Numbered from the stretch's first letter, positions 18,584 to 34,336 are shown. The stretch is DNA of 64,000 nucleotides from an uncultured bacterium (GCA_964453435.1 CAYVQZ010000002.1:20555-84554), one strand, 5' to 3'. Translations and numbers: made by a program. The notes: generated from the letters alone by a model not told the origin.

Positions 18584-20596
18584 TCAAGGGTAATTGTTTC
18601 GGCCTCGTTTTAACACTTGGAAGCAGCCGAAGGAGACCTCCGGCTCATAGTTATCGTCAACTATCCGGGCGATTTGCGGGTATTGCGCAGCGAACCCCTG
18701 GTAGGAGAGCGCATCGTGCGGAGACGCGGGCACTCGCGAAAGGACAACGAACTTGGGGTTGCTCGCGCGCAGTTCCTCCGCCGTCCGCTCCACCTCCTCT
18801 TGAGAGAAATATCCGGGCCACAAATAAACGAATTTCGTGGGAGCGAGCCGTTCAGTGAGAAGGTTTACGACCGCAAGCGACGGGAGTCCGGCGATGGTGT
18901 CGTCCGGCTCCGTGTGTTCCTTTAAATAGCGTATAAGCTGACCGAACATATCCGCGTATCCCGTATCGAAAATTATCCCTGCTCCATCTGCATCGAGACG
19001 CGTGACATCCCGTCTTTCCACCGACCAGCCCCACGCGACCCGCTCGGTCTTGAGGAGCAGCCGTGCCGGACCGAACGCTCTCCCAAGAAAGAAGAGAAGC
19101 AGCGCAAGGACAAAAATGGTCTCCAAGCCGCGGTTCTCGCGTGACAAGCCGGTCTTTCTTTTGAGCCACCCTGCCCCTCGATGGATAAGGAAGAAGCTCA
19201 ACACGATCCAGGGGGCGAAACCAAAACCAAAGTGGTTGAGGTCCTGATACGGAAATGTTTGCTGCAGCATGAGGGAGGCATACATAAGAACAGAGAGAGA
19301 ACGGAAAGCCTCTTCGGTGAGTCCGTTCTCACGAACATGGCTCACGAAGAAGACTGCGTACGCCGCGACGACCACCACGGGAAGATACATGTACAGCTCG
19401 GGGTTCCATTGAGCCGACAACAAGAAATTCAGAGTAGTATTCGTGCAGAACAGGTACAGCAGCGCCGCGGTCAAAAGAATACCTGCCATCTGAACGCTTC
19501 TGCGGTTTTTCTTCCGTCGAGTCCAGAGAAAGCAAGCAATCGTCGCGAAAACGACAATCGTTGCGGGGAAGATGAGAGCGGATGAAGGAAGCCGCGGGAA
19601 CGGAACGACCATTTCTCTGAGTCGCCATGTTTCACCGACCAAAAGCACTTTCTTCAGTAAGCCGAGAGTGCCGAGTTCAAAGGAAAGAGGGATAAACCAG
19701 GGAAGTATTGCGCCCAGAAACCCTGCAGCGAGAAAACATTCATAGAGCAAGAGAGTCGTCGCTGACGGATTTTCGATTGGCTTGTCTCGTGAAATCCGGA
19801 AGACCGGGCAGACCCACAGCATGAGTCCACATGCCACAAGCGCCGGTGTCGTAAGCAAAAGAAAATTGTGGACCGTCCTTTCTCTCACGTACAGCATGGG
19901 CAGGACTGCCCCGAATACCACAACGAGAACGAGAACGAGAAATTTCGACAGCAACCCTTCCGCCGGATTCTGCTTGTTCTCTCCAACTCGCCAGAACACG
20001 CCCATCAAGCCGAACGCCGCCACCGCGAACACGCCGATGCTCTGTTTGAACGAAAAAGCCATCCCGGCGGCGATGCCGGCAAGGACGACGGGGCCGATGG
20101 CGCCTCTTTCAATTGCTGCCATGACGGCATAGAGTCCGCCGAGACCGATGGGTACCGCGTACCACGAACTGTACGGAATGTTGAGAATTGGCGGACCGAA
20201 GAAGACGAAGGCGAACGCACACCACACCGACAACCAGCGCGGCATCATTTTTAAACTGATCGCAAAAAGACACAGGCTCGACAGGAACCCGACGGCGGCC
20301 AGTCCGTATTTAACAGCCATGATACGCGCGCCGAAGGTTTTGAAGAGCAATCCGTTGACATAATAAACGGCGGGTGGCCAGAACGGGTCGAAATCGACAT
20401 AAGGAGTCTTTCCGAGGGAAAGCAGATAGGACTTGTAGAGGATGAAGCCTTCATCGGCGTGGTGCCACGTAACGGGAAAGGAGAGTTCGAAGGGAGCCAG
20501 CAAAACATATGCGCATCCAATGAGCGCGAACGCGAGAACGAGCGCAATATGTTTCATGCCCATAGGATGCCAACCAGTATGCCTGTTTTTGACCAA
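18584..20596 (-). CDS. GT-C superfamily membrane glycosyltransferase (ArnT/PMT, GT39/83-like)
   Basis: 670 aa with about 12 TM helices, the first-loop acidic motif WHHADEGF, and a C-terminal soluble domain ending ...PKFVVLSRV...FGCFQVLKRG that is paralogous to the C-terminus of 27956-30022. Confidence 0.7.
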   Translation of the reverse strand: MVKNRHTGWHPMGMKHIALVLAFALIGCAYVLLAPFELSFPVTWHHADEGFILYKSYLLSLGKTPYVDFDPFWPPAVYYVNGLLFKTFGARIMAVKYGLAAVGFLSSLCLFAISLKMMPRWLSVWCAFAFVFFGPPILNIPYSSWYAVPIGLGGLYAVMAAIERGAIGPVVLAGIAAGMAFSFKQSIGVFAVAAFGLMGVFWRVGENKQNPAEGLLSKFLVLVLVVVFGAVLPMLYVRERTVHNFLLLTTPALVACGLMLWVCPVFRISRDKPIENPSATTLLLYECFLAAGFLGAILPWFIPLSFELGTLGLLKKVLLVGETWRLREMVVPFPRLPSSALIFPATIVVFATIACFLWTRRKKNRRSVQMAGILLTAALLYLFCTNTTLNFLLSAQWNPELYMYLPVVVVAAYAVFFVSHVRENGLTEEAFRSLSVLMYASLMLQQTFPYQDLNHFGFGFAPWIVLSFFLIHRGAGWLKRKTGLSRENRGLETIFVLALLLFFLGRAFGPARLLLKTERVAWGWSVERRDVTRLDADGAGIIFDTGYADMFGQLIRYLKEHTEPDDTIAGLPSLAVVNLLTERLAPTKFVYLWPGYFSQEEVERTAEELRASNPKFVVLSRVPASPHDALSYQGFAAQYPQIARIVDDNYEPEVSFGCFQVLKRGRNNYP

Positions 20597-20625
20597 CCGT
20601 GTTTGTCGGAGCCTTCAGGAGGAAA

Positions 20626-22458
20626 TCATTCAATGTAGCCAAGAGCCTTCAATTGATTCGAGAGCTCGTCGGTAAGTTCCCTTCGAATTGCGGGATGCCG
20701 ATTCATATTCTTTCGAAAATCTTCTGCCATCCCCCTGTGTTTCTCCAAAATGTCCGGCTCCTGGTTGCTCAGATTCAGGATTTCCCGTGGATCGGACGCA
20801 ATGTTATAGAGCATTTCCTTATTCCGTTCCGTGAGGTTTATATATTTATAATCTTGCGTACGGATTGTATACATGTGTCCCATGGGTTCCGCGAGCGCAT
20901 TTTCCGAAAAACTGATAATGGTCCGGTTTGTGTCAGCAGCCTCATCCAAGAGGTCTATGAACGGCCGCGCCCGCAAATGCGCGGGAACATGAACGCCGGC
21001 CCATGTCAAAATGCTGGGCATGAGGTCCGTCAGCGAAACGGGTGAGCGAACCCTTGCGCCGGCGGAGAGCGATGGGCCCGTTAGTATGAGCGGAACCCGC
21101 ACCAGTTCGTCATACAGGGAATTTCCATGGCACAAAAGCTCGTGCTCGTAGAATCCTTCGCCGTGGTCGGAGGTTAATATGACCAGCGTGTTCTTTCGGC
21201 AATTTCCATCATCAATGGCGCGGAATAGCTCATTCAGTTTCGAGTCGACTTTCTCAATCCTTTCAATATATGCGGTCCGCAGACTGTCCAGCATTGAGTC
21301 GTCCACGGGCTGTCGAAATACTTCGGTTCCCCCGAGGTCAACAAAATAGTCGTGCACCTCATACGTGTGAATGAAAAGGAAGAACTCGCGTCGCGGGTCG
21401 TGTCTCTCGATAAATCTCGTGCCGTTTTCAATGGGATCGCCGATTAGCGCGTCCTCGAGAGGAGCGCTTGTGAAGGGGTGCTTGAACATGTGAAAACCTC
21501 GGTCGAAACCATAATTCGGGCTTATATAGCCGCCCCCCGTAAATGCAACGGTGTAATAGCCGTCGCCACGGAGTAGTTCAGCCATTGTGGGCACTTCGGA
21601 ACCTAAGGCCAGGACGGTCATATTATGGGTCGGATTCACGCCGTGTTCCGAGGGGGTCAGTCCGGTGAGCATGCTCATATGTGACGGGACTGTCCAGGGA
21701 GATGTCGAATATGCGCGCTCGAACAGCAGGCCGCCTCTCGCCATGTAATCGATTGACGACGAAACACCCAGCGATGCTCCATAGCAATCCAGGAAATCAG
21801 GTCGAAGAGTGTCGATAGATATGAGCACTATATTTCTGTTCGTTGCCTTCTTGACCGCGGACAGGGCGACCGGGTAACCAGTACTGATTCCTGTTCCGGT
21901 GAGAGCTATGGCAAGAAGGACAAGCACGCGGTGTAGGAATTTTGGGTTGAGCGCGCGGCGCATCGACGTAAGGGACGCATGGCGTATTTCGGGACGAAAC
22001 GTCATGAACAGCAGAAAGACGAACAGTGCGGGGGGAATGTTCATGAGTAAAGCGGAGAGGTATGCGTGAAACGCTTCGTTTATGACAACATGCCGTTCGA
22101 GCGCCGGTTGAGTCCACCAGATGAGGGCGGGCAGACACAGCGCGTGCAGCCGTCTCAACCGGGCGTCGTCCTCATGAACTTGTAACAAGTCAATTAGAAC
22201 GTGTCGGAGAAACCATATGAGGCTGGTGAAGAAGCAGGCGACTGCCATCCAGAGCAGCGCCATCCAAATCGCTTTTTCACCGCTGCTCATATACGATTGC
22301 TGAAAATGAGACCGCAACAAAACAGCCGGCGCAGTCGCAGACGCGAGTATCGCCATGGCGGCTCGACCGTTCACTCGCCATTTTTTCGAGTCAGTCGGTG
22401 GCAAAGTCTTTTCTCCTCCTAAGCGACCCTGCTCCTGTTCACAGACTCTGTGCCCCAC
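20626..22458 (-). CDS. membrane-anchored alkaline-phosphatase-superfamily 'sulfatase-like' hydrolase/transferase (Thr at formylglycine position)
   Basis: 610 aa with N-terminal TM helices and a sulfatase-fold domain (VLISIDTLRPDFLDCYG...YSTSPWTVPSHMSMLTG...TSDHGE). The FGly motif C/S-x-P-x-R is replaced by T-V-P-S-H. The C-terminus ...LKALGYIE is shared with the paralog at 32117-34336. Confidence 0.7.
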   Translation of the reverse strand: MGHRVCEQEQGRLGGEKTLPPTDSKKWRVNGRAAMAILASATAPAVLLRSHFQQSYMSSGEKAIWMALLWMAVACFFTSLIWFLRHVLIDLLQVHEDDARLRRLHALCLPALIWWTQPALERHVVINEAFHAYLSALLMNIPPALFVFLLFMTFRPEIRHASLTSMRRALNPKFLHRVLVLLAIALTGTGISTGYPVALSAVKKATNRNIVLISIDTLRPDFLDCYGASLGVSSSIDYMARGGLLFERAYSTSPWTVPSHMSMLTGLTPSEHGVNPTHNMTVLALGSEVPTMAELLRGDGYYTVAFTGGGYISPNYGFDRGFHMFKHPFTSAPLEDALIGDPIENGTRFIERHDPRREFFLFIHTYEVHDYFVDLGGTEVFRQPVDDSMLDSLRTAYIERIEKVDSKLNELFRAIDDGNCRKNTLVILTSDHGEGFYEHELLCHGNSLYDELVRVPLILTGPSLSAGARVRSPVSLTDLMPSILTWAGVHVPAHLRARPFIDLLDEAADTNRTIISFSENALAEPMGHMYTIRTQDYKYINLTERNKEMLYNIASDPREILNLSNQEPDILEKHRGMAEDFRKNMNRHPAIRRELTDELSNQLKALGYIE

Positions 22459-22499
22459 GGGTGCACATTTAACCGAAAGATGGGCATAGGAAAACCCGC

Positions 22500-22693
22500 C
22501 CCGGATTTACGGACCAAGCTTGTCGAGGTCGTACAATCGGGACTGAGTCCGTCCGATAATTCAATACGTGGTCGTTTGGCCAGGGGACAGTCCCCTTCGG
22601 GACAGTTTCACTGTCCCCTGAACAGAGAACCTCCATACGAAATTATCGGACAGTCTCCTTGTCCCCGAAGCGCGGATTGCCCAATCGCGGGTC
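22500..22693. repeat. dispersed intergenic repeat, family 1, copy B (contains GGGACAGTttcACTGTCCC hairpin and GTCCCCGAAGCGCGGATTGCC)
   Basis: Shares GATTTACGG...AATCGGGACTG with copy A and AATTATCGGA plus the CCCCGAAGCG core with copy C. It sits in the 270-bp gap between the SGNH-like and sulfatase-like genes of the same operon. Confidence 0.55.
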
Positions 22694-22728
22694 AGATACG
22701 TTTCCGTGATCCCTCTCTGCAAACCGAT

Positions 22729-23892
22729 TCAATTTCCACTCGGCGCTTCTTGCTGTCCTGATTTGTTTTTGAGCAGCGCCGCCACCACGGGAGCGAGCTT
22801 CTCGACAACCTTTCTGCCACCTTCCGGCGTGTAATGCTCAAGCCTGTCCCGAAACTCTTCCGGCTCGAGAAGGTCAAGCAGGTCGAGGAATACGCCGCCA
22901 TTCGAGGATACGATTTCTCGCATGCGCCTGATATTGTTTTTATAGAGTTTATCATCATACAGGCCGTGTTTCTTCAGTTCTTCGATGTTAATCGGTGTGA
23001 CGTATGCCACGAACGGTATCCCGGACCTTTTGAGGCTATCCGCCAATGCTTTGAGTGTGAGCATTTCCGTGTGGTCGGTGGGAATCTCGGCAGGGCATAG
23101 GCCCGACAGAATTTCAGGAGTGAGTTCCAGCTGGCGAAGCATTACGACGACCTGGTGTCCTTTTGTCCGCCTGACCGCGCCTTGCCGCGCCCATCTGACT
23201 TCGATAGAATCATTTCTGCGAAGCAATTGGATGAAAACATCCCTGACCCGGATTTTGACTCCCCGCACATAATACGTTTCCCAGAACTCGGCTTTCAACT
23301 TCAAGCGGTCGCCAAGGCTGAAATTTTCGATCTTGGCCGGACTGTCAATCCCCTCGCTCAGGCTTTCCTTGAACGGCGCAAAAAAGATAAGCTCGCGTCC
23401 CTGGATTGCGCCGTTCTCATCGCGCATGTCTTTCTGTCCTTGCCATCCAAAACGGCGGTAGTTGATGTTGAAGATTACGAGAGCAGGCGAGTATTCCCTC
23501 GCTTTGCAGGTAAGGCAATAGTAGTGAAACAGGGAGGCCCTGCCGAAGGCCCAGTCGATTATCTTTACGGAGGTCTCGCCGTATTCGTCCGCCAGTTTCT
23601 CTTGCAGAACCATGGGTGGGGCCACATCATTACCCAATAAAGCCACTGTTGAATCACCAAAATAGAATATGCGCTTCTCGCTATCCGGCACAAGACGAGG
23701 CAACTGATGGATAGACAATAATACTTCGTTATACGGTTTGCCCAGCCCGAGGTATAGCAACGCCGTTCTCATTCCAATGCTGCACAGAAGAATCAGGTAT
23801 ATCGTGGCAATTGAAAGCAGGTAGAAGAAAAGAGTGCGCCCGGGGTTGAAGCCGACTCTTTGCATCGGGTTCGGGTTGTTCTTTGCCAACAT
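22729..23892 (-). CDS. membrane-anchored SGNH/GDSL-like hydrolase-fold protein (probable MBOAT partner, AlgJ/AlgX/PatB-like)
   Basis: 387 aa with an N-terminal TM helix, a block-I IFYFGDSTV (GDS), and a conserved FHYYC segment. It is paralogous to 30048-31133 (VIFFGDSSL...FHYYC...EHYSLEGRK) and lies 8 bp downstream of the MBOAT gene. Confidence 0.6.
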   Translation of the reverse strand: MLAKNNPNPMQRVGFNPGRTLFFYLLSIATIYLILLCSIGMRTALLYLGLGKPYNEVLLSIHQLPRLVPDSEKRIFYFGDSTVALLGNDVAPPMVLQEKLADEYGETSVKIIDWAFGRASLFHYYCLTCKAREYSPALVIFNINYRRFGWQGQKDMRDENGAIQGRELIFFAPFKESLSEGIDSPAKIENFSLGDRLKLKAEFWETYYVRGVKIRVRDVFIQLLRRNDSIEVRWARQGAVRRTKGHQVVVMLRQLELTPEILSGLCPAEIPTDHTEMLTLKALADSLKRSGIPFVAYVTPINIEELKKHGLYDDKLYKNNIRRMREIVSSNGGVFLDLLDLLEPEEFRDRLEHYTPEGGRKVVEKLAPVVAALLKNKSGQQEAPSGN

Positions 23893-23900
23893 GGCGAAAC

Positions 23901-25316
23901 CTAAAACTGGAAATAGATGAAACGCTGTTCGGTTGTGAAGAATACATAGATCGCGATAGTCACAACCGCGTAGGCAAAACCCTTGACCGGCGAGGGCAAG
24001 CTCAGGAACCGCTCTTCCACCTTAACTTTTCCCCGAATGAAATGGCTCGCCGCCGCGATGGCCAGCATAATCATCGTAGGCATAAGGGTTACCGTTGCCG
24101 CCCGTTCGAAACCAAACAGGTTCCGAATTATGGTCTCAAAATCCCCGAGCGACTGCGCCCTGAAGATGCTCCAGCCCAAGCAGACGAGATGAAAGGTGAA
24201 CACAATTTTGATAGCCGGCCACATTCTCCACGCGCGAGCCTTCTGAAGAAGAGGAATCTCGAATAATTCCAGGTGGCGTTCCACCAGCAACAGGACGCCG
24301 TGATAAAGTCCCCACAGCACGAAATTCCAGCTCGCGCCGTGCCAGAGCCCGCCTAACAGCATGGTAATCATAACATTTATATACGTCCGTGCGCGCGTGC
24401 CACGATTTCCGCCAAGGGGGATGTACAGATAGTCGCGCAACCACGTGGAGAGCGAGATATGCCAGCGTCTCCAGAATTCGCGGAAGGTTTTCGCCAAATA
24501 GGGAAGATTGAAGTTCTCCGGAATTTCAATGTTCATCACATTCGCCAGTCCGATTGCGATGTCCGAGTACCCGGAAAAATCGAAATATATTTGGAACGCA
24601 TACGCATAGATGGCGACAAGGGTCGCGACAGAACCATACTCGCTCGGACTCCCGAAGACGAGGTCGACATGCCGTCCGAGAAAATCGGCAAACACGACTT
24701 TCTTGACGTATCCCTGGGCGATGAGGAACATTCCACGCTCCATCAATTCGGGGCGTTGGCATCTCTTCATGCTCAATTGCGGAAGCAGATGCCGCGCCCT
24801 GACAATCGGGCCGGCGACAAGCTGAGGAAAAAAAGCGACAAAAAGGCTGAAATTGATGAAGTTCTTGGTTGGCTTGAACTTCTTATAATAAATATCTATC
24901 GTGTAGCTCATGGTCTGGAACGTGTAGAACGAGATGCCCACGGGCAAGACGACATCGAGTTTCCAAGTGGCGGCGCTTATCCCATAAGCAGCCATGAGGG
25001 TTTCGACATTATCAACGAAAAAATTATAGTATTTAAAAAAGCCGAGCAGGCCAAGATTCACGGCGACGCTCAGGAAAAGATAGAATTTCCGCGCTCGCGG
25101 ATTCTCCTCGCTCTCGAGGCGAAGCCCGCAATAATAGTCGACGACGGTGGAGGTGAATATCAAGGATAGAAATTTATAGTTCCACGAGCCATAGAAAAAG
25201 TAGCTGGCGGCGAGAAGCATGAAATTCTGATAGCGAAGTGGCGACTTGGCAAGCAGGAGATATAAGAGGTAGACCCCGAGAAAGAAGATAATAAATTCCA
25301 TCGAATTAAACAGCAC
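23901..25316 (-). CDS. MBOAT family membrane-bound O-acyltransferase (AlgI/DltB/PatA-like)
   Basis: 471 aa with FWRRWHISLSTWLRDYLYIPLGGNR containing the conserved catalytic His. The multi-TM sequence resembles AlgI/DltB throughout. Confidence 0.85.
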   Translation of the reverse strand: MLFNSMEFIIFFLGVYLLYLLLAKSPLRYQNFMLLAASYFFYGSWNYKFLSLIFTSTVVDYYCGLRLESEENPRARKFYLFLSVAVNLGLLGFFKYYNFFVDNVETLMAAYGISAATWKLDVVLPVGISFYTFQTMSYTIDIYYKKFKPTKNFINFSLFVAFFPQLVAGPIVRARHLLPQLSMKRCQRPELMERGMFLIAQGYVKKVVFADFLGRHVDLVFGSPSEYGSVATLVAIYAYAFQIYFDFSGYSDIAIGLANVMNIEIPENFNLPYLAKTFREFWRRWHISLSTWLRDYLYIPLGGNRGTRARTYINVMITMLLGGLWHGASWNFVLWGLYHGVLLLVERHLELFEIPLLQKARAWRMWPAIKIVFTFHLVCLGWSIFRAQSLGDFETIIRNLFGFERAATVTLMPTMIMLAIAAASHFIRGKVKVEERFLSLPSPVKGFAYAVVTIAIYVFFTTEQRFIYFQF

Positions 25317-25485
25317 TTTTATTCCTTCCGGATTGGGGGTTCAATGACACAGGTGAATAATAGGCGGGAAAATGGTAGCGCTTCGGTGCAGCATATTCTA
25401 TGACACGACGTCGAGAATAAAGTTTTCCGCTTCTATCTTCTTCAGCTCCAAAACTCTCATGGCTTGTCGCTCCCATGGTTTGTTG

Positions 25486-27858
25486 TCAAGAGCCCCTTTC
25501 CGCAAGGAAGTCGATGTCCATTATCTGAACGTCCGGACCATTACGGAAGAGCGGAAATTCGATCAAGGGCAAATCGTCACTCATAATGGGCGCGCCTTCG
25601 GCATATTCTCTCGCGTCATCTTCTTCGAGCAGAAGCAGTGACAATACCCGCGGACCATCTATTAAGGTACTCGAATACAGGGACAGGTCTTTCTTCACGG
25701 CCTCCCTTTGAAAATACTCATTGAAGGAAGCATCGTCTATTTCCAATGTCTCTTGCGTGCCGATGAGATAGGCGCCTATCCTGTTGGGTGAGTTCCATAC
25801 CGTGGTGTGCGGAAATACGTCCATAAATGTTGCGACCTGCATCTTAAATTGGTCTTCAGTGAAACAATCGAGCAAAGTTGGGAGCCATTGACAAACGATT
25901 CCCCCGGGATTCAGACGCTCTTTGCAGAGAGCATAGAATTCCCTGGTATACAGATTTACCGTTCCCGCGCTCCACGGCGGGGGTGGCGGGTCTACTGTGA
26001 TTACGTTATAGGTCTTATCCGAGAGCAGAAGATAATTTCTGCCATCGGCGATTATGGTCCTCACTCCCGGTTCATTCAGCATCTCGGGGTCCTTCTGAAA
26101 ATACGCAAACGCTTCAACCACAAACGGGCACAATTCCACCAGGTCAACCTCCAAACCTGCTCTTCTTGCCGACACGAATGTCGAACCCATCCCGAAACAG
26201 ATATTTAGGAGTGTTCTAGGTTCATCTAGCAAAGCTATGGGAAGATGCGCCATCAACTGCGTCTCGCTGCAAAGGACGGTCATGGACACGCCATTCACAG
26301 ATAGTATTTTCATTCCATTGGCGTTTTCCACAACGGCCACCGCCGCCGTGGGGTCTTCCTTGAAGGCAAGCACTCTTCCCGACTCGTTCTTCAGGCACCT
26401 GAGCGAAAGCTCTCTCATCATGTCGTTGCCAAATGCGAAACCGGCAATGGGTAGAATCAAAAAAGAAGCCGCGGCCCAGTTCCACACGGGAGCCCCTTCT
26501 CGCCTTATAGATAAAATGAGAAGCGACAATCCGACACAGAAGCTTAAAAGCACAAGAAGGAGAACGCTGTTTTTTGAGCCGAGCAACGGGATAAGCACGA
26601 ATCCTGCGACGAAAGACCCGACGATTGCTCCCAGCGTATTGACGGCATAGAGCGATCCGGTTTCTGTTCCAATCGTGTTCAGACTTTGGGTATACACCCG
26701 GACCGCGACCGGGAACGTAGCCCCCATTAACAATGTCGGGGCCAGGACCACTGCAAACGTGCTCAGGAAGTTCGTATGCAAATAATTTCCGGGTGACAAT
26801 TGCAGCGAATATTCCTGAAAGGGCATTTTTTGAAACAAAAGCAGACCTGCAAGCGCGCTCAAACCGATGGCTAGTTCGAGCCATCCGAATACTTCGAGTG
26901 GTCTCTTCAATTCGTCGGAGATTCTGGCGAAGAGCAGACTCCCTGCCGTTAATCCCAGAAGATATACCACCAGGATCATCGAGAACGAGTAGATTGAACT
27001 GCCGAGGAGAAACACCAAAATGCGCGTCCACATAACCTCATATGCGAGCGCCAGCATACCGGATAGTCCGAAGGCCACCAGCACGAACCTCAGGTTGCCA
27101 CGGGTATAGCGGGCTATGTCTGTCGGACTTTTCAACGCGTGTGATTCCTGTCCGACCTCCGGGAGATGACCATGACTGCGATGCAGCCAGAAGGCAACCA
27201 GCCCAACCAGCACATTTATCGACGCTGCCAGATGCTCCGAACGACTGATTCCTATCCAACCGAGAAGCACAAAGCCGGCAAGGAAACATCCGGCAACAGC
27301 GCCGAACGTGTTAACCGCGTAAAGCGAACCTATCCCAAATCCCGTTTTCCGGAAATGAAAAACGATAAATTTCGACAGCACCGGCAGCGTTGCGCCCATC
27401 AGTGTTGTGGGCACCAGCAGCACGGCCGTGCTGAAGAAGAATCGCACAAGGCTCAATGCGTAATTCGACGCTTCGGTAGCGTTGTAAAGGAAGCGGTATA
27501 CTGGAGTAAGCGTAGAGAGCACAAGAGGGATAAGAACGGCTGAAACGCCTATGCCGATCTCGAGCCAGCCGTACATTCGGATCGGGTCGTCTCGTTTGTC
27601 TGCGAACCGGCCGAACAACATGCTGCCCAAGGCCAGACCGCCCATGAATGCGACCAGGACCGTGCTGACAGAATATACCGTATTTCCGAAAATGAGGGTG
27701 AGCCTGCGAGTCCAGGCTATTTCGTAGATAAGAGCGCACATGCCCGAGAGAAAGAAAAGGGGGAAAAACACGCCTGTGCCAGGGCTGAGGCCGTATCCTG
27801 GGGGGAGTGGCGTCGGTGTTCGGGCGAGATCGGGCTGCGTCAATGGATTGCTTTTCAT
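25486..27858 (-). CDS. fused MFS-like membrane domain / spermidine-synthase-like aminopropyltransferase
   Basis: 790 aa. Two internal membrane repeats (ALIYEIAWTRRLTLIFGNTVYS...; ALAYEVMWTRILVFLLGSSIYS...) are followed by a C-terminal SpeE-like Rossmann domain (LNICFGMGST...DVFPHT). Confidence 0.75.
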   Translation of the reverse strand: MKSNPLTQPDLARTPTPLPPGYGLSPGTGVFFPLFFLSGMCALIYEIAWTRRLTLIFGNTVYSVSTVLVAFMGGLALGSMLFGRFADKRDDPIRMYGWLEIGIGVSAVLIPLVLSTLTPVYRFLYNATEASNYALSLVRFFFSTAVLLVPTTLMGATLPVLSKFIVFHFRKTGFGIGSLYAVNTFGAVAGCFLAGFVLLGWIGISRSEHLAASINVLVGLVAFWLHRSHGHLPEVGQESHALKSPTDIARYTRGNLRFVLVAFGLSGMLALAYEVMWTRILVFLLGSSIYSFSMILVVYLLGLTAGSLLFARISDELKRPLEVFGWLELAIGLSALAGLLLFQKMPFQEYSLQLSPGNYLHTNFLSTFAVVLAPTLLMGATFPVAVRVYTQSLNTIGTETGSLYAVNTLGAIVGSFVAGFVLIPLLGSKNSVLLLVLLSFCVGLSLLILSIRREGAPVWNWAAASFLILPIAGFAFGNDMMRELSLRCLKNESGRVLAFKEDPTAAVAVVENANGMKILSVNGVSMTVLCSETQLMAHLPIALLDEPRTLLNICFGMGSTFVSARRAGLEVDLVELCPFVVEAFAYFQKDPEMLNEPGVRTIIADGRNYLLLSDKTYNVITVDPPPPPWSAGTVNLYTREFYALCKERLNPGGIVCQWLPTLLDCFTEDQFKMQVATFMDVFPHTTVWNSPNRIGAYLIGTQETLEIDDASFNEYFQREAVKKDLSLYSSTLIDGPRVLSLLLLEEDDAREYAEGAPIMSDDLPLIEFPLFRNGPDVQIMDIDFLAERGS

Positions 27859-27955
27859 TTCTTCAGGTAGTTACAAACGAAGTTTTGAACACATCAGCCT
27901 TATGGAAAAGTTAGCTGATTCAAGACGAAATTATATTCGAGACGATTGAACAAAG

Positions 27956-30022
27956 TCAAAGAGTGGCAGGTTCGGCCGATTGGATTTCGCTTTGTCTCGA
28001 TTGAAGAATCTGAAAACGTCCGAACTGTTGGGTGGGACCATACTGAGATTTGAGAATAGCGGCGGTTTTCGGCCACGCGTTGAGAAAACTGTTCGTTTCC
28101 ACATCGTCAATCTGTTGAATCACAAATCGGGGCTTTGTGCGAATTAATCTTCGAGCCATCTCCTCATCGTCGAATCCAAGTCTTCCACTTAGGTTCAAGA
28201 AACCGAAATTGGACAGGTATGCGAAGTAATTTTCCTTTGAAAGAACGCTGTCGCGTTCGGAGAGAAAATAGATGATCTGGTCCTCGCATATTACGAATAT
28301 AGGCTGATCCGGTTCCACATGGCTACGAATAAATTCGATTGTGTCATCCAGGTCAACATACTGTTTGACCACATGGAGCTTCACACCCCGCGCCCTGGGC
28401 GATTTCAGCTCGAAAAAGGAATGAAACCGCAGTCCTTCCCCCTCCTTCTTCAAGGGAACCGGCAGACTCTGTAAATAAAACACTTTCAAGCTCCAGAGAA
28501 AGGGCAGGATAATCAAACATGCACCCGCCGCCACCCATATTGCACCCAGGCGTGTCTTTCTCTTGAAGAGGTGGCTGGCGGTCTGATTCAGCTTCCATAA
28601 CAAGAAGCCAATCAACACAAATATCACTGTGCTGTTCATCAGAAAATGCACCTCATCGCTTCGGGGAAACGCCAGAAGAAGAAAGAGCGAGGAGAATGTG
28701 CAGCAGAGAAATAGGAGGAGCTTATACCTGGCCTCCTCGGCTTCTTCGTCCCTGAGCTTGGCAAACACGGGAAACGCCGCCAGCAGGCTCAGAGTCCAAA
28801 GCGTGTGAGTGATGCGCGCGCGCCATATTACGAACGGTGTCTCGCTAAGAAATATGTATGCCGTTGGCCCCAGCAAGACCGCGAGCACCAACAAAAAAAA
28901 ACGCAATTCTCCGCCTCTGCTGCTTTTGCTTCGCCTCATTCCCGCAATGGAGAAGACGAGACCACAGAGGAAAACGACTGCTATAAGCAACGCATGAAAA
29001 CGGTGCTCGTACATAGGCCAATAGTAATTTATGGAAAATGGCAGCACGAAAGTATCATAGAACAGCTCCTCGAGTCCTCCCGCTTTCCAATAGAGCAGAA
29101 ACTCCAGTAAGAGTATAGAGGCCGGGCCCAGAGCCAGCAAGCCGATTTCCCCCATGAGACATCTGAACCCGCTATGGCGGCGCCATCCCTCTCCGGACAC
29201 GGCTCCTCCCCGAAGCGCGGCAATTTCTCCCGCCAGCATGGGGCTGAGAAAAAGAAAGAATGGAAGCAGAAATATGCCAAAGTAGTATATGTCAAGACGA
29301 TATCTCAATAAGTACAGAGCGAAACTGCCCGCCACACCTATGATGAGAGACAATTTGAGAATTCTGCCGAAAAGAAACCCGGCACCCTCGGCGTAAACCC
29401 CCTCCTTTGGGTATTCGTCGCCATCCGCGAAAAGCTGTTCTCTGTAACACAAAAACAGAACCAGTCCCACGAGGATAAAGATTCCGGCGGGTAACTTGAA
29501 AAGCAGGGCCAACCCCCCGCAAAATCCCGCCGCCAGAAGGAAGCGCTTCTTGTCGCTCTGCAGAAAAAGGATGCTGCAAAGTATCGCAAGAAGCCCCAGA
29601 AAATGAGCGCAATGACTTCCGTATAAAACATTGAAAACGCGATGTAACGCATCTCCCCAACAGAAGACAAAAAGCGCTGACGCCAAAAACGCAAACCGAT
29701 ACGGCATCAGTTCGCCTGCAATCCAGAAAATAAACACCGCCATGAGCGCTTTCATGACGATAAGAAAAATCCTTATGACTATGATTTTCTCCCCAAATAA
29801 TTTAAAAAGGCCGCCGCCCGCGAAGTAGACGCCCGGGCCGTAGATATCGTAGAAATCCCGATGCGGAAGCTGGTCGCGAGAAAACTTTTCGAAATTGTAT
29901 AGCAGGTAGCCCTCATCGAAAGTATCGAGTCCGCGATTCGCTGTAAGAGAAAAATAGCCGCTCGCAAGCACCGCAACGAGCACTGTAAGGACCACAAACT
30001 TCCAGCCCACCTTCTTGTTCAT
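27956..30022 (-). CDS. GT-C-like membrane glycosyltransferase, paralog of 18584-20596
   Basis: 688 aa, multi-TM, with a first-loop FDEGYLLYN motif and C-terminal domain KPRFVIQQ...FGRFQILQ that aligns with the C-terminus of the other GT-C-like protein. Confidence 0.6.
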   Translation of the reverse strand: MNKKVGWKFVVLTVLVAVLASGYFSLTANRGLDTFDEGYLLYNFEKFSRDQLPHRDFYDIYGPGVYFAGGGLFKLFGEKIIVIRIFLIVMKALMAVFIFWIAGELMPYRFAFLASALFVFCWGDALHRVFNVLYGSHCAHFLGLLAILCSILFLQSDKKRFLLAAGFCGGLALLFKLPAGIFILVGLVLFLCYREQLFADGDEYPKEGVYAEGAGFLFGRILKLSLIIGVAGSFALYLLRYRLDIYYFGIFLLPFFLFLSPMLAGEIAALRGGAVSGEGWRRHSGFRCLMGEIGLLALGPASILLLEFLLYWKAGGLEELFYDTFVLPFSINYYWPMYEHRFHALLIAVVFLCGLVFSIAGMRRSKSSRGGELRFFLLVLAVLLGPTAYIFLSETPFVIWRARITHTLWTLSLLAAFPVFAKLRDEEAEEARYKLLLFLCCTFSSLFLLLAFPRSDEVHFLMNSTVIFVLIGFLLWKLNQTASHLFKRKTRLGAIWVAAGACLIILPFLWSLKVFYLQSLPVPLKKEGEGLRFHSFFELKSPRARGVKLHVVKQYVDLDDTIEFIRSHVEPDQPIFVICEDQIIYFLSERDSVLSKENYFAYLSNFGFLNLSGRLGFDDEEMARRLIRTKPRFVIQQIDDVETNSFLNAWPKTAAILKSQYGPTQQFGRFQILQSRQSEIQSAEPATL

Positions 30023-30047
30023 TACTGCTTGCCCTCTCGGGGAAAGG

Positions 30048-31133
30048 TCATAATTTCCCCCCTTCTTCGAGCATTGCGATTACTTTGGTTGACAGCCTCT
30101 CCGCTATTATCTTCCGCCCTTCAAGCGAATAATGCTCCATCTCGTCAACAAAATATGGCTCGCTGAGAACGTCAGAAAGGTCGGTCCAACAGCCCCCTTG
30201 CTCTTGAATCGCCTTCAATATGCCGTCCTTCGACCTCTCGAACGAACGATGGTCCATGATGTCGAGTTCTTCGAGGAGCGTCTGGTTTATCGGATTGATA
30301 TAGAAAAGAATCCTTACTTGGTGTTTCCGGCCAACCTGGATGATGGCCCGAATATATCGGAATATCTCGTGTTCCTCCGTTATGTTCATGGGATAGGCGG
30401 CTCTGAGGAAACCGTGGTCATGGTCGCGCCTCGGGACGAAATCGAGGCTGCCGTCATCCGCCGCCTCCGATACCCGTCGCGAGGCGCGCGCAATCGCAAC
30501 GTTGGTCCCATTTATGGCCCATTCCTTGAAGCCCATCGGATAGAGGGAAAAAATTTGAATCTCATATCGCAATTGTTTCTTATGGGAAATCCCGTAGGGT
30601 CGAAGCGGATTTTCTGAATCGAGGAGGGAGAGCGCCGGAACAAGCGCGGAAAGTTCCATAAATTCGTCTTTGGCCAAAGCTTTCCAGACAGGGCTGAGCG
30701 AGTTCCAGTTGATGGGGATAATCACGAGGTCAGGCGAAAAGTCCATCGCTTTGTAAAACATACAATAATAGTGGAACATATTCGCAGAGGCAAAAGCCCA
30801 TTCTGCAACCCCGATTCGCACGTAGGGGTGTCTGGAGGAAAGAGATTCCTGCAAAAGCAGTGGAGTATGTGTGTGAGCGGCGTCTGAATCGGCTCGCCTG
30901 TCCGGAGGATAGAACAGGCTTGAGTCGCCGAAAAAGATTACCTTTATGGGGAAGCCTCTTTGCAATTCTTTTGTGGCATATCCCGTAAAAAGGATGGAAT
31001 AAGGTTTTATGTCACCCGCAAATTTGGCGAACAACTCGCATCGAATTGTCAGTGCCGTCAATAGAAAAAGGCAGACCAGATAATAAACTCCGACCCATGT
31101 CGCCTTTGACCTTGCCTGTATCCGATGCTCCAT
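30048..31133 (-). CDS. membrane-anchored SGNH/GDSL-like hydrolase-fold protein, paralog of 22729-23892
   Basis: 361 aa with an N-terminal TM, VIFFGDSSL, WAFASANMFHYYCMFYKAMDFSPDLVII and EHYSLEGRKIIAERL, all matching blocks in the paralog. Confidence 0.6.
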   Translation of the reverse strand: MEHRIQARSKATWVGVYYLVCLFLLTALTIRCELFAKFAGDIKPYSILFTGYATKELQRGFPIKVIFFGDSSLFYPPDRRADSDAAHTHTPLLLQESLSSRHPYVRIGVAEWAFASANMFHYYCMFYKAMDFSPDLVIIPINWNSLSPVWKALAKDEFMELSALVPALSLLDSENPLRPYGISHKKQLRYEIQIFSLYPMGFKEWAINGTNVAIARASRRVSEAADDGSLDFVPRRDHDHGFLRAAYPMNITEEHEIFRYIRAIIQVGRKHQVRILFYINPINQTLLEELDIMDHRSFERSKDGILKAIQEQGGCWTDLSDVLSEPYFVDEMEHYSLEGRKIIAERLSTKVIAMLEEGGKL

Positions 31134-31633
31134 TGCCGGCCCATGCCCCTCGGAAAGGGGGATTTATCGACGGGGCGAAGACTGGGGCTATGCAGGACCG
31201 AATGCATTTTCTTTTGTCTCCGAAGACGCCTTTAACGCAAAAATCCAGAAAAGAATCGGGCCTGTATTCTTTCTTGCTGTAAGTTCTCCCTGGTCCTCTT
31301 CGTCCGATTCACGCGTAAATAGATGCCTAGCCGCAAGATTCGGTCATTCTGATTCCGGAGAAAACTCTCCTCCTGCGCCTCGTGCTCCAGCTTATCCACG
31401 TATTCGTTTGCCTGCTGCCGAATTCTCTGGTGTTTCAGTTCCCCCCGAAACTAATTCCAGGCTCAACATCATGATGAAATAGCGCGGAACGCCGTTCTTA
31501 CACCTTGCCCGTTTCCCGGCAACATCGTACCATACGCTTATTGGCTAAGGCAAGGAATAACAAGAAGATTCGCAATCCATCCTGCCCTTTTACCACGGAG
31601 GACACTGCGCGGTGTAACCGCAACCAAACTACA

Positions 31634-31925
31634 CAGGGAGACCACGAATTACACAAATTACACGAATGAAAGTTCTCTTCTTTTCATTCCCGCGAAAGCA
31701 GGAGTCCAGGAAAAGATTTCTTGAGCCGCAAAGGCTTGAAGGGCGCAATGGAAGGCAGAAAGAAAATTGACCACGGGGAGGGTGGCGTGACACGGGGAAA
31801 GGCCGTGAAGATTAGCAACGGATTACACAGCGCGGCACAGCCGCACCCAAAAACCAAAGAAACTCCCGGAACACGAAAGACACAAATCGTGCGAATGTCA
31901 CGAATGAATAGTTCTTTCTTGGTGA
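31634..31925. repeat. direct repeats ACACGAATGAA(A/T)AGTTCT(C/T)TTCTT about 240 bp apart, plus TTACAC-N3-TTACAC, in a 983-bp divergent intergenic region
   Basis: CACGAATTACACAAATTACACGAATGAAAGTTCTCTTCTTTTCATTC at about 31634-31682 contains the hairpin GAATGAAAG...CTTTTCATTC. A second copy, GTCACGAATGAATAGTTCTTTCTTGG, is at about 31895-31925. Confidence 0.45.
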
Positions 31926-32116
31926 TTCTCGCTGGCTGACTCCCGAAGCAGTATTTTGATACAAATCGGCGAGTGATATATACTGGGAAGACAAGAATAT
32001 GCTTTTGCTGAATTTTCATGCCGCGAAGCCCTCTTGGGGAGAGGTCTCACATGCCCGTGCTCTTTATGGGTTATACCGACATACGCTCTTTCACGAGGGT
32101 CGCATTATGAGGCTTC

Positions 32117-34336
32117 TTGAGGCCGAAGATATGTAAAAGGCTGTTGCAGCGCAGGGGTTTTCTGATGGAGCAGACCAAGAGGGTCGTTGGCACAACCTTT
32201 CTTCGTTCTCTGGTATTGGGGTCGACAACCGCGATTGTCTATTTCGCTTTCGAGTTCTTTTTCGTCACTCTTGCAGGCGCTCATATCCGCATCGAGTACA
32301 TGCTTCTTGCTTTTGGAGCTTACCTGGGAATCGGCCTGGTTCTCGGGACCGTTATCGGGTTGGGAGTCGGCTGGCGGACAGACCGGAAAACCAGTGGAGA
32401 GGTGTCGATTTCACTGTCATTTTATCACATCTTCGGCTTCCTTGCTCTGTTTGGCTTCTATCTATTCTTCCAGCATCCCCTGGTGAGCATGCGTCTTACG
32501 TTTCTGCAGAAATCCGCCGCAAGTTTTCTCACCGCGGTTTTTTTATTTGCGCTGGCATGGTGGTTGGCAAAAAAGCCGATTCCGCGGAAAATGCCGTTCC
32601 GGGCCACATGTGCTTCATATGGGGTCGGCATCACCGTTGTTTGCGAATTGGTTGCCGGCGGAAGATATCTGAACGAAGAATATTTGCCCCTCTTTTTCGG
32701 CTCGCAATCGATTCTGATAAACATGTTCGTGCTTTGCGCCGCCGCCGCCATTTTCTTTATCGGAAACATGTATGCCACTGGTCGCATTACGCCTGCCGGC
32801 GGAAAGGATATGGGAGCCGCTCTCATACCTGCAAGCGTTGCGTTGGTCTTCCTTGTGACAACTGCATATCATCCTCTGGAGAAATATGAGATGCGGATTC
32901 GGCCAGTCAAGAGAGAGGCGGCTCCAACGGAGCGGCCGAATGTGATTCTAATCTCAATTGACACAATTCGCCGCGACCATCTTTCGGTGTATGGATATGA
33001 GCGGGAGACTTCCCCAAACCTGGATGCCTTCGCCACCGACGCGGAAATCTATGAGAATGCTATCTCCAACTCCTGCTGGACGCTGCCCTCCCATGCGTCC
33101 ATGCTGACCGGACTTCACACGAGCGCGCATGGCGCCCACGTGGTAACCGATGCTTTCGAAGGGCTGAGCAAGGCCGATTCCAGCCGGATACCCAGCTTTG
33201 TCGGCGCCGCCCCCTTACATCCCGAATTCGTTACCCTGACGGAAATTCTGAGAGAAAACGGATATGCCACCGGCGCCATTGTCGGAAATTGCACGTATCT
33301 GTACAGGGCATTCGGATTGAATCAGGGATTTGATTACTACAACGACCTCGAAGGCATGCGAATAAAGTTTCCACCGGTATTCGAACCGTTTCGGGTCAGG
33401 TTCTTCACCGAATTTCTTTCTCACCGTTTCAAATGGTATCGAGATGCAGAGGAGGTCAATGAAATCGTATTTGCTTGGATTCACGCTAATCGGCGGTGGC
33501 CGTTTTTTCTTTTCCTGAATTATAATGATCCTCATAGCCCTTACAGCGCGCCGCCGCCATACAACCGTCTCTTCCCCGGAAAAATCTCGAGTCGCGCTTT
33601 GAATGAGTCGGAAATCGTTCGGGCGTTGCGCGCGATGGAGAGAGAGCTCACAAGAGAGGAGAGAGAGCATTTTCTCTCACAGTACGACGGCGAGATTAAC
33701 TATATGGACCATCATCTTGGCCGTCTTTTCAGTTACCTCAAGGAGACGAATATTTATGAAAATTCGCTAATCATTGTGGTCGGCGACCATGGCGAGGCGT
33801 TTGGCGAGCATCTGGCGCTCGGGCACAGGCATAGTCTCTATGAGCCTGAAGTGAGAATTCCCCTCCTGGTAAAACATCCCGAAGCGGCCAGCAAAGGGCG
33901 GAGAGTTGAAGCCGCGCAACCAATAGATATTTTGCCGACAGCGCTTCATATAGTCGGTGTGCCGCTGCCGGCAGGTCTCGACGGCCGCTCGCTGGGGAGT
34001 GCGGAGGCCGATCAAACACTGCCGATGAGCGAGTATTACGTCTTTCAAGATGGTGTTGCGATGTCGCGGGCACGAGTCAACAGATGTATAAGAACCATTT
34101 ACGACGGCAGGTATAAATATATATGGAATTCCGATGCGCCGGACGAGTTGTATGACCTGAAGGCCGACCCTGAGGAAAAAAATAACCTGGCGACGCAGTT
34201 GCCCGACATTGCAGAAACGTGGAGGACTAATCTGGAAGAGCGTCTGGGCCCGCCGCGGTTTCGACCGCAACAACGAACAGGCGTGGCGGATAAAGAGGCT
34301 CTGGACCGGTTGAAGGCCGTCGGGTACATCGAATAG
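32117..34336 (+). CDS. membrane-anchored alkaline-phosphatase-superfamily 'sulfatase-like' hydrolase/transferase, paralog of 20626-22458
   Basis: 739 aa with an N-terminal multi-TM region, VILISIDTIRRDHLSVYG, NSCWTLPSHASMLTG (T-L-P-S-H in place of C-x-P-x-R), VGDHGEAFGEH and the C-terminus LKAVGYIE. The likely start is ATG 32165 (MEQTKRVVG). Confidence 0.7.
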   Translation: MRPKICKRLLQRRGFLMEQTKRVVGTTFLRSLVLGSTTAIVYFAFEFFFVTLAGAHIRIEYMLLAFGAYLGIGLVLGTVIGLGVGWRTDRKTSGEVSISLSFYHIFGFLALFGFYLFFQHPLVSMRLTFLQKSAASFLTAVFLFALAWWLAKKPIPRKMPFRATCASYGVGITVVCELVAGGRYLNEEYLPLFFGSQSILINMFVLCAAAAIFFIGNMYATGRITPAGGKDMGAALIPASVALVFLVTTAYHPLEKYEMRIRPVKREAAPTERPNVILISIDTIRRDHLSVYGYERETSPNLDAFATDAEIYENAISNSCWTLPSHASMLTGLHTSAHGAHVVTDAFEGLSKADSSRIPSFVGAAPLHPEFVTLTEILRENGYATGAIVGNCTYLYRAFGLNQGFDYYNDLEGMRIKFPPVFEPFRVRFFTEFLSHRFKWYRDAEEVNEIVFAWIHANRRWPFFLFLNYNDPHSPYSAPPPYNRLFPGKISSRALNESEIVRALRAMERELTREEREHFLSQYDGEINYMDHHLGRLFSYLKETNIYENSLIIVVGDHGEAFGEHLALGHRHSLYEPEVRIPLLVKHPEAASKGRRVEAAQPIDILPTALHIVGVPLPAGLDGRSLGSAEADQTLPMSEYYVFQDGVAMSRARVNRCIRTIYDGRYKYIWNSDAPDELYDLKADPEEKNNLATQLPDIAETWRTNLEERLGPPRFRPQQRTGVADKEALDRLKAVGYIE

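Follow-up and report, generated by a model that had tools for sequence, protein, structure and literature searches.

We analysed a 64,000-nucleotide stretch of DNA from an uncultured bacterium (GCA_964453435.1, CAYVQZ010000002.1:20555-84554; hereafter the window), which encodes two membrane-anchored proteins, S1 and S2, that carry a sulfatase fold but a threonine at the position converted to formylglycine (FGly) in true sulfatases. An initial annotation of the window had described the two as paralogs that are unlikely to be sulfatases, and had likened them to the threonine-nucleophile transferases LtaS, EptA and MdoB. Here, we describe the remodelled active site of S1 and S2, the large family of such Thr-type proteins to which they belong, and the gene contexts that bear on their function. 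The features of the two genes are as follows.

20626-22458, minus strand: S1, Thr-type sulfatase-fold protein, 610-amino-acid (aa) open reading frame (ORF) from GTG 22458
21841-22290, minus strand: S1 N-terminal membrane anchor, aa 57-206 of the 610-aa ORF
20629-21840, minus strand: S1 catalytic domain, aa 207-610
21661-21708, minus strand: S1 motif STSPWTVPSHMSMLTG (translation), with T256 (21691-21693) occupying the FGly column and H260 (21679-21681) the Arg column
21127-21813, minus strand: S1 predicted active-site residues, from mapping onto sulfatase residues and column conservation
32117-34336, plus strand: S2, Thr-type sulfatase-fold protein, 739-aa ORF from TTG 32117
32165-32866, plus strand: S2 N-terminal membrane anchor, seven predicted helices ahead of the catalytic domain
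33065-33112, plus strand: S2 motif SNSCWTLPSHASMLTG (translation), with T322 at 33080-33082 and H326 at 33092-33094
32960-33826, plus strand: S2 predicted active-site residues D282, T322, D557 and H558, and N468, H473 and H570

A sulfatase scaffold with a rebuilt pocket

Gene callers working on identical metagenome contigs start S1 at ATG 22290 (554 aa) and S2 at ATG 32165 (723 aa), and these are likely the true starts; a 554-aa protein 100% identical to S1 is called on metagenome contigs, and a 723-aa protein 100% identical to S2 is on record. S1 residues are given below in the numbering of the 610-aa ORF (554-aa form plus 56) unless stated otherwise. Both proteins match the Pfam families PF00884 Sulfatase (3.8e-42 for S1, 6e-45 for S2), PF01663 (9.1e-16 and 1.3e-10) and the sulfatase C-terminal subdomain SGSH_C (PF16347). 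AlphaFold2 (AF2) models reached a mean pLDDT of 86.7 for S1 and 77.7 for S2, with values >90 in the catalytic domain of S1 and the catalytic core of S2. Relative to S1, S2 carries two insertions with pLDDT <50, one after the nucleophile helix and the other before the P-H-x-P motif (33140-33200 and 33380-33440; aa ~340-360 and ~417-436), which may shape substrate access.

Each protein has the N-terminal multi-transmembrane (multi-TM) anchor that the initial annotation described. The first ~150 residues of the S1 model are all-helical and contain three strong hydrophobic segments exceeding a Kyte-Doolittle (KD) value of 1.6; no Pfam family matched this anchor. The loop preceding the last hydrophobic segment holds six Lys or Arg residues, so that by the positive-inside rule the S1 catalytic domain would lie outside the cytoplasm. 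In S2, the seven predicted helices span residues 2-37, 43-71, 83-103, 108-136, 145-167, 179-204 and 215-233 of the 723-aa model, and six segments exceed the KD threshold.

The 16-residue strings first quoted for S1 and S2 are exact translations, and alignments to solved FGly sulfatases by phmmer, by family profile and by structure show the FGly column of both proteins occupied by Thr and the Arg column by His. There, S1 and S2 read T-V-P-S-H and T-L-P-S-H in place of the FGly signature C/S-x-P/A-x-R, and a regular-expression search found no [CS]x[PA]xR anywhere in either protein, the motif whose presence would have overturned the initial annotation.

Despite this change, the scaffold resembles that of sulfatases. 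Searches with phmmer against all PDB chains returned only FGly sulfatases, choline sulfatases and phosphonate monoester hydrolases (PMH), with best E values of 1.6e-26 for S1 and 4.4e-34 for S2. The best NCBIfam models for the two proteins were arylsulfatase (147 and 167 bits vs a cut-off of 481), choline sulfatase (133 and 123 bits vs 433), PehA (96 and 141 bits vs 900) and Mn-arylsulfatase, all far under their cut-offs. Arylsulfatase, PMH and choline-sulfatase models gave E values of 1e-43 to 1e-49, the EptA and LtaS models matched S2 only (2e-13 and 7e-9), and the YejM model was marginal for both (2e-4 and 8e-4). With Foldseek, the top 50 PDB matches of the S1 and S2 models were FGly sulfatases or PMHs without exception, with PMH and sulfatases leading for S2. 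Structural comparison gave values of 42-33 for FGly sulfatases and PMH, 33 for PbgA/YejM, 31 for LtaP, 28.8 for LtaS, 26 for EptC, 25.2 for the Xac enzyme of the nucleotide pyrophosphatase/phosphodiesterase (NPP) family, 24.3 for MCR-1, 24.0 for PafA, 23.9 for EptA, 20 for GacH and about 18 for alkaline phosphatases. From these values, the predicted scaffold is that of sulfatases and PMH, not that of LtaS or EptA. The kinship with LtaS, EptA and MdoB first proposed thus survives as a mechanistic analogy, while by sequence S1 and S2 are closer to arylsulfatase, PMH and choline-sulfatase models.

We compared S1 and S2 with FGly enzymes of type I (SulfAtlas family S1) and PMH, namely BT1596 (5g2t), SpAS2 (4upl), RlPMH (2vqr) and EfAS (9koq). 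Shared with these are the sulfatase alpha/beta fold with its C-terminal subdomain (PF00884 plus SGSH_C) and the motif order, in which a first metal Asp is followed by the x-x-P-x-x nucleophile helix and the P-H-x-P His; the D-H-G-E metal pair of PMH and choline sulfatase is also present in S1 and S2.

The pocket itself differs. Profile-to-structure alignments, read against the published residues and mutants of the arylsulfatase EfAS from Enterococcus faecium (PMC12421950), map EfAS residues D20, Q21, C61, R65, K110, H112, H220, D311, H312 and K324 onto S1 residues D216, T217, T256, H260, G308, G310, H369, D431, H432 and H444, respectively. By this alignment, the predicted first metal site of S1 consists of D216, T256, D431 and H432, and the predicted second site of H364, H369 and H444. 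All four cationic ligands of sulfate or the FGly hydrate are replaced: Arg by His, Lys-x-His by Gly-x-Gly (Gly-x-Thr in S2) and the second Lys by His. Two of the replaced cationic positions are therefore His, and one position is added, a His five residues ahead of the conserved His (H364 in S1, Asn468 in S2, where most relatives have His). Thr takes the place of the second Asp (or Gln) of motif I, and the 13-residue spacing from the Asp to the next pocket residue of EfAS (D311-K324) is kept as D-to-H. We had considered EfAS, a Mn-arylsulfatase, as a precedent for a Thr-type enzyme and ruled it out, as it uses Cys61.

That S1 and S2 are nevertheless sulfatases, with Thr or a metal-bound hydroxide standing in for formylglycine, is extremely improbable. 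In its favour, both the fold as a whole and the strongest sequence matches point to sulfatases, and alkaline phosphatase has a weak promiscuous sulfatase activity. Against this, Thr cannot yield FGly (PMC5066984), the recognition motif of the formylglycine-generating enzyme is absent from both proteins, and the Arg, Lys, His and Lys at sulfate-binding positions are replaced, positions at which mutation abolished or nearly abolished EfAS activity (PMC12421950). With the FGly residue changed to Thr and all four cationic residues gone, the initial view that these are not true sulfatases is well supported, and we conclude firmly that S1 and S2 are not FGly sulfatases.

The conserved residues instead look like those of Thr-nucleophile phosphoryl-transfer enzymes, a resemblance that we regard as firm at the level of sequence. 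In MCR-1, Glu246, Thr285, Asp465 and His466 bind Zn1 and His395 and His478 bind Zn2 (PMC5175174), with spacings of 110 residues for T285-H395 and 13 for D465-H478. The S1 pattern D...T...H...D-H...H has 113 residues from T to H and 13 from D to H. S1 and S2 thus share with EptA/LptA, EptC and MCR-1 the order [E/D]...T...H...D-H...H at near-identical spacings, with a Thr nucleophile that is predicted for S1 and S2, as well as a multi-helix N-terminal membrane region followed by an alkaline phosphatase (AP)-superfamily domain, which is periplasmic in those systems. They differ from EptA and MCR-1 in having Asp for Glu at the first ligand and a sulfatase C-terminal subdomain; neither has the EptA-type five-helix N-terminal membrane domain or a curated model of that family above cut-off. 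A Thr nucleophile, an N-terminal multi-TM region and an extracellular catalytic domain are likewise features of LtaS/LtaP, OpgB (MdoB) and GacH. The LtaS model, however, gave 34.8 bits for S2 vs a cut-off of 970 and no match for S1, and the nucleophile motif is T-x-P-S-H in the present proteins vs T-x-N-x-E in LtaS-like ones (PMC5066984). No LtaS or OpgB (MdoB) family model matched S1 or S2 above cut-off, and neither protein carries the LtaS-type nucleophile motif.

A further likeness, absent from the initial annotation, is to NPP phosphodiesterases. Motifs I and II of S1 and S2 (ISIDT-x-R-x-D and T-x-P-S-H-x-S-x-x-TG-x-x-P-x-x-HG) resemble those of the NPP family, in which the consensus is S-x-D-[GT]-x-R-x-D and T-x-P-[NS]-H-x-S-x-x-T-G-x-x-P-x-x-H-G, and NPP enzymes use a Thr nucleophile with histidines at the second-site positions. 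Because of this resemblance, PF01663 matched motifs I and II with 58.8 bits in S1 and 41.8 bits in S2 vs a cut-off of 23; these matches are partial, and neither protein gave a full-length NPP catalytic-domain match with the Asp/His/His second zinc site. Taken together, the residues suggest that a metal activates the Thr for nucleophilic attack and that histidines line a second site; both features are predicted from sequence, and it is on this predicted arrangement that we would assign phosphoryl- rather than sulfuryl-transfer chemistry.

A large family with threonine on the formylglycine column

Relatives were searched in 5.8 billion proteins, yielding 589 for S1 (E<=1e-10) and 373 for S2 (E<=1e-20). 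We aligned S1, S2 and 240 listed relatives to the family hidden Markov model (n=242; S1 554-aa numbering). The FGly column (T200) is Thr in 240 sequences and Ser in the other 2, and the Arg column (H204) is His in 224. Conservation of the remaining pocket is similar: D160 in 240 of the 242, T161 in 223, R163 in 238, D165 in 225, P202 in 234, H313 in all 242, D375 in 240, H376 in 241, E378 in 226, H383 in 212 and H388 in 240, with the H308 column being His in 189 and Asn in 50. The sulfatase Lys-x-His positions are small residues across these relatives. When 1.84 billion cluster representatives (50% identity) were scanned exhaustively with HMMER, 104,615 proteins passed a threshold of E<=1e-3; of these, 61,278 also passed 1e-10 and 15,078 passed 1e-30. 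Among the best 150 matches, counted over 143 further representatives, Thr occupies the FGly column in 162 of 164 domains. Thr on this column is a family trait, not chance or a local oddity. Most of the 15,078 matches are probably Thr-type as well, because E=1e-30 corresponds on this scale to ~120 bits, vs 96 bits for the best PDB FGly sulfatase against S1.

The same conservation bears on whether S1 and S2 are catalytic at all. A non-catalytic or regulatory AP-superfamily scaffold like PbgA/YejM (LapC), sensing or binding an envelope lipid, would share their fold. We consider this quite improbable, since seven putative catalytic residues are invariant or nearly so over hundreds of distant relatives, which is the pattern of an active enzyme, and the sequence similarity to YejM is marginal.

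The clade is further marked by a set of motifs, D-T-x-R-x-D, W-T-x-P-[SA]-H, H-x-x-x-x-H, D-H-G-E-x(4)-H-x(4)-H and a C-terminal L-x-A-L-G-Y; S1 has all of them, and S2 all but the first His of H-x-x-x-x-H, where it has Asn. The C-terminal motif was found in essentially every relative sequence that reaches the end, and its clade-specific form, L-[KR]-A-L-G-Y, sets the family apart from FGly sulfatases, whose alignments stop before it. As L-[KR]-A-L-G-Y-[IVL]-x it is near-invariant in the Thr-type family (20629-20652 in S1, 34310-34333 in S2); S1, S2 and many relatives end with it, and others continue into TPR repeats.

We hold it as firm that S1 and S2 belong to this large, coherent Thr-type clade on the sulfatase/PMH fold. 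They fall in one family, as their description as paralogs implied, but they are old members rather than recent duplicates: they are only 30% identical over the catalytic domain (E 7e-43), and each has closer relatives elsewhere (46-48% identity for S1, 42% for S2). A scan of a genome collection, with a 14-sequence alignment, found the family in Acidobacteriota, Planctomycetota, Myxococcota, Desulfobacterota, Aminicenantes, Binatia and some archaea, the best relatives there being 32-36% identical. In their sources, these proteins are named 'sulfatase', 'arylsulfatase A-like enzyme' or 'sulfatase-like hydrolase/transferase'.

Anchors of several helices are not a family trait, which further limits the initial likening to LtaS, EptA and MdoB. 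At least two TM segments occur in only 82 of 389 relatives; a single hydrophobic segment at the N-terminus is seen in 158, of which 53 have a lipobox, and 79 carry long C-terminal extensions such as TPR. A signal peptide, lipobox or TPR tail is present in most of these relatives. Judging from these N-terminal segments, lipoboxes and TM counts, together with the seven helices of S2, the catalytic domain is probably exported and extracytoplasmic. We also observed polypeptides of up to ~1500 aa with two to four tandem Thr-type catalytic domains (P0248, P0249, P0250 and ~40 other representatives).

That PF00884 mixes true sulfatases with Thr enzymes is already known, and gene pairs open to such mis-naming are ordinary: SulfAtlas reports Thr in roughly half of the seed sequences of PF00884, its example being the LtaS-like T-x-N-x-E set and not the present clade (PMC5066984). 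Our searches found no prior description of a clade that combines a sulfatase/PMH-like fold, EptA/NPP-like catalytic residues and an LGY motif of its own, and the clade has no solved structure and no curated family model.

Gene context in the window and among relatives

S1 lies in a block of minus-strand genes at 18584-31133 (gene order SGNH2, GTC2, MFS/spermidine-synthase-like, MBOAT, SGNH1, S1, GTC1), and S2 is divergently transcribed from this block across a 1-kb gap. The neighbouring genes are as follows.

18584-20596, minus strand: GTC1, 670-aa polytopic membrane protein, paralog of GTC2 (BLASTP 3e-14), 29 bp downstream of S1
22729-23892, minus strand: SGNH1, TM-anchored protein with an FGDS motif, paralog of SGNH2 (BLASTP 5e-27), 8 bp from the MBOAT gene
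23901-25316, minus strand: MBOAT membrane O-acyltransferase, DltB/AlgI-like (PF03062 7.4e-27)
25486-27858, minus strand: fused MFS/spermidine-synthase-like membrane protein (NF037959 8.2e-51, above cut-off)
27956-30022, minus strand: GTC2, PMT_2/GT-C-like polytopic membrane protein (PF13231 3.8e-8, 34 bits vs a cut-off of 26)
30048-31133, minus strand: SGNH2, second TM-anchored protein with a GDS motif, paralog of SGNH1, weak DltD match

GTC1 itself had no Pfam match, and one of its orthologs carries PF13231. The MBOAT protein matched the DltB model at 3.6e-56, under its cut-off, and its sole PDB sequence matches were to DltB at 1e-32; SGNH1 and SGNH2 are putative SGNH proteins by their motifs and similarity to each other. 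We are firm that S1 and S2 are membrane-anchored proteins among envelope-modifying genes. The DltB-like MBOAT, DltD-like and GT-C genes parallel, by analogy only, the toolkit for synthesis and decoration of lipoteichoic acid (LTA). A true dlt/LTA system was rejected: neither DltA nor DltC lies near the MBOAT gene or elsewhere in the annotated window, and the AMP-binding genes at 37867 and 48522 lie in acyl-CoA contexts. The window holds no Thr-type family member besides S1 and S2.

Several further observations concern the locus. In the region 18584-34336, old paralogs form three pairs (S1/S2, 30% identity; GTC1/GTC2, ~26%; SGNH1/SGNH2, 24%) beside one MBOAT and one fused MFS/spermidine-synthase-like gene, as if a module had been duplicated. 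The gap at 31134-32164 contains only a 111-aa ORF (31684-32019, minus strand), which was not called by gene callers, and one sigma-70-like site at 31956-31984 on the plus strand; Rfam gave no match anywhere in the window, this gap included. Farther off, at 9057-9953, lies a DUF1559 (SBP_bac_10) protein with an N-terminal methylation motif; DUF1559 is reported to be specific to the PVC superphylum (PMC4807772), which hints that the DNA comes from a PVC-group bacterium.

Fusions and neighbours of relatives connect the Thr-type domain with membrane glycosyltransferases and lipid-handling proteins. Two separate clusters (P0008; P0168 and P0241) contain fusions of PMT_2/GT-C with a Thr-type domain, and GT2, DUF2304 and LPG_synthase_TM genes accompany the P0008 fusion. 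In a metagenome-assembled genome (MAG) of Candidatus Fermentibacteria (L034:8150-11338), we observed a 1062-aa fusion of LPG_synthase_TM, of the MprF flippase type, with a Thr-type domain. The S2-like P0134 has PMT_2 17 bp upstream, with GT2, GT2_TM_C, further PMT_2 genes and a second family member nearby, and another locus (L032) also has a PMT_2 neighbour. The genomic association with GT-C enzymes is a further likeness to EptA, EptC and MCR-1; ArnT and EptA are a pair of lipid A modifiers and offer a parallel.

Counterparts of the other window genes occur near relatives less often. In tblastn searches of 80 loci, MBOAT homologs lay near family members in three (L055, L067 and L028), one with an SGNH-like neighbour, and MFS/spermidine-synthase homologs adjoined Thr-type members in two (L057, with two copies, and L084). 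Together these are 5 of 80 loci, from other phyla, a weak enrichment. In L057 (408-11261, a Deltaproteobacteria MAG), two Thr-type genes flank two fused MFS/spermidine-synthase-like genes, of which one is TPR-tailed; L084 shows the same pairing, which echoes the arrangement in the window. GTC1 orthologs (~50% identity) adjoin YfhO-family GT-C genes, and in one of these contigs (L094) a Thr-type gene sits between two YfhO genes. Beside another GTC1 ortholog and two YfhO genes, on a contig assigned to Candidatus Abyssobacteria SURF_5 (L093:3114-9794), lie six genes encoding an MBOAT, an 84-aa carrier-protein-like protein (..DEWDSLMH..), FkbH_N, a radical SAM protein, a MaoC dehydratase and a 331-aa TM-anchored protein; this set resembles a Dlt-like system whose cargo would not be D-alanine.

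Across 72 loci, a Pfam scan of 121 immediate neighbours revealed no universal operon partner. After the paralogs considered below, the next neighbours were GT1 (5), TPR (4) and outer-membrane barrels (3). Multi-TM members were available for comparison of polytopic neighbours at 5 loci only.

Possible transfer or hydrolysis at the envelope

We tentatively favour a reading, without regarding it as established, in which S1 and S2 are outward-facing Thr-nucleophile transferases of phospho-forms onto an envelope lipid or glycan. The analysis shows the identity of the residues, the fold, their conservation over the family, the membrane anchoring, the gene neighbourhood and the fusions; that the enzymes bind metal, face outward, act on phosphate and transfer it instead of hydrolysing, and on which substrate, we infer from these. 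Each protein would be an integral-membrane metallo-enzyme that keeps the fold of FGly sulfatases and PMH, with its pocket rebuilt to the residue pattern of phospho-form transferases and NPP-type enzymes. The first metal site would comprise the Asp, the Thr nucleophile and the Asp-His pair, and a second, His-lined site would replace the sulfate-binding Lys, His and Lys. A threonine alkoxide (T256 in S1, T322 in S2), activated by metal, would attack a phosphodiester, carried by a membrane lipid or lipid-linked donor, at its phosphorus; the alcohol would depart with stabilisation by the second site, and an envelope glycan, lipid or protein would supply the hydroxyl that resolves the covalent phospho-Thr intermediate. 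S1 and S2 would in this way add a phospho-substituent to the same envelope polymer that their neighbours (GT-C-like, MBOAT/SGNH-like and MFS/spermidine-synthase-like) may glycosylate, O-acylate or otherwise decorate.

The same chemistry could end in hydrolysis. If water resolved the phospho-Thr, the two proteins would be phosphodiesterases or phosphomonoesterases that function like NPP or PafA, tethered to the membrane and facing outward; they would trim or recycle phosphate substituents of envelope polymers or lipids, or scavenge phosphate. We consider this quite possible, if somewhat less probable than transfer. In its favour, fold and sequence are nearest to hydrolases (FGly sulfatases and PMH, with no exception among the nearest folds) and not to known transferases, motifs I and II resemble those of NPP phosphodiesterases with PF01663 above its gathering score, and membrane anchors are not conserved. 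Most of the 389 relatives appear to be exported soluble proteins or lipoproteins, often with TPR tails, and their paralog arrays and two- to four-domain polypeptides recall degradative families diversified by substrate. The closest ortholog of S1 (46% identity) adjoins SMC and FtsY, with no glycan genes. For multi-TM members, we favour a transferase over a phosphodiesterase or phosphatase because of the GT-C and flippase-like fusions and the content of the locus, which suit biosynthetic decoration better than scavenging. A seven-helix anchor likewise exceeds the need of a tether, and the annotated parts of the window showed none of the phosphate-starvation genes pst, phoU and phoBR.

The nearness to hydrolases, the mostly soluble or lipoprotein membership and the setting of the closest S1 ortholog all weigh against transfer, and so do several further results. 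The commonest immediate neighbour in the 72 loci is another paralog (15-17 of 121 neighbours) and not envelope machinery, and GTC1 orthologs pair mainly with YfhO, a Thr-type gene being present in only 1 of 5 other contigs. A Pfam scan matched no EptA or LtaS membrane-domain family in the TM regions of S1 or S2, no conserved lipid-donor module is visible in their membrane regions, and pairwise comparison found no similarity between the two anchors. S2 has Asn, not His, at one second-site position. Literature searches, in which subscription journals were thinly covered, found no experimentally characterised member of the clade.

A broader form of the transferase reading, which we think unlikely as a whole, would make the Thr-type clade (~ten thousand 50%-identity clusters) a distinct AP-superfamily branch in which a sulfatase scaffold became a two-metal Thr phospho-form transferase independently of LtaS and EptA, its anchored members installing a phosphodiester-linked substituent on an envelope glycopolymer. 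If so, GT-C enzymes would next glycosylate this glycopolymer and the MBOAT/SGNH pair would O-acylate it, in a pathway resembling teichoic-acid or lipid A decoration in PVC-group and other little-studied, mostly uncultured lineages.

By labelling these proteins 'sulfatase' or 'arylsulfatase A-like enzyme', automatic annotation inflates the number of sulfatases credited to Planctomycetota, Acidobacteriota, Myxococcota and related groups; this mis-naming misleads inference on the degradation of sulfated glycans. The clade shows the nucleophile and the substrate-binding residues swapped as a coordinated set, which bears on how function evolves in the alkaline phosphatase superfamily. If its membrane-anchored members are phospho-form transferases, they would point to undescribed envelope decorations in poorly studied phyla.

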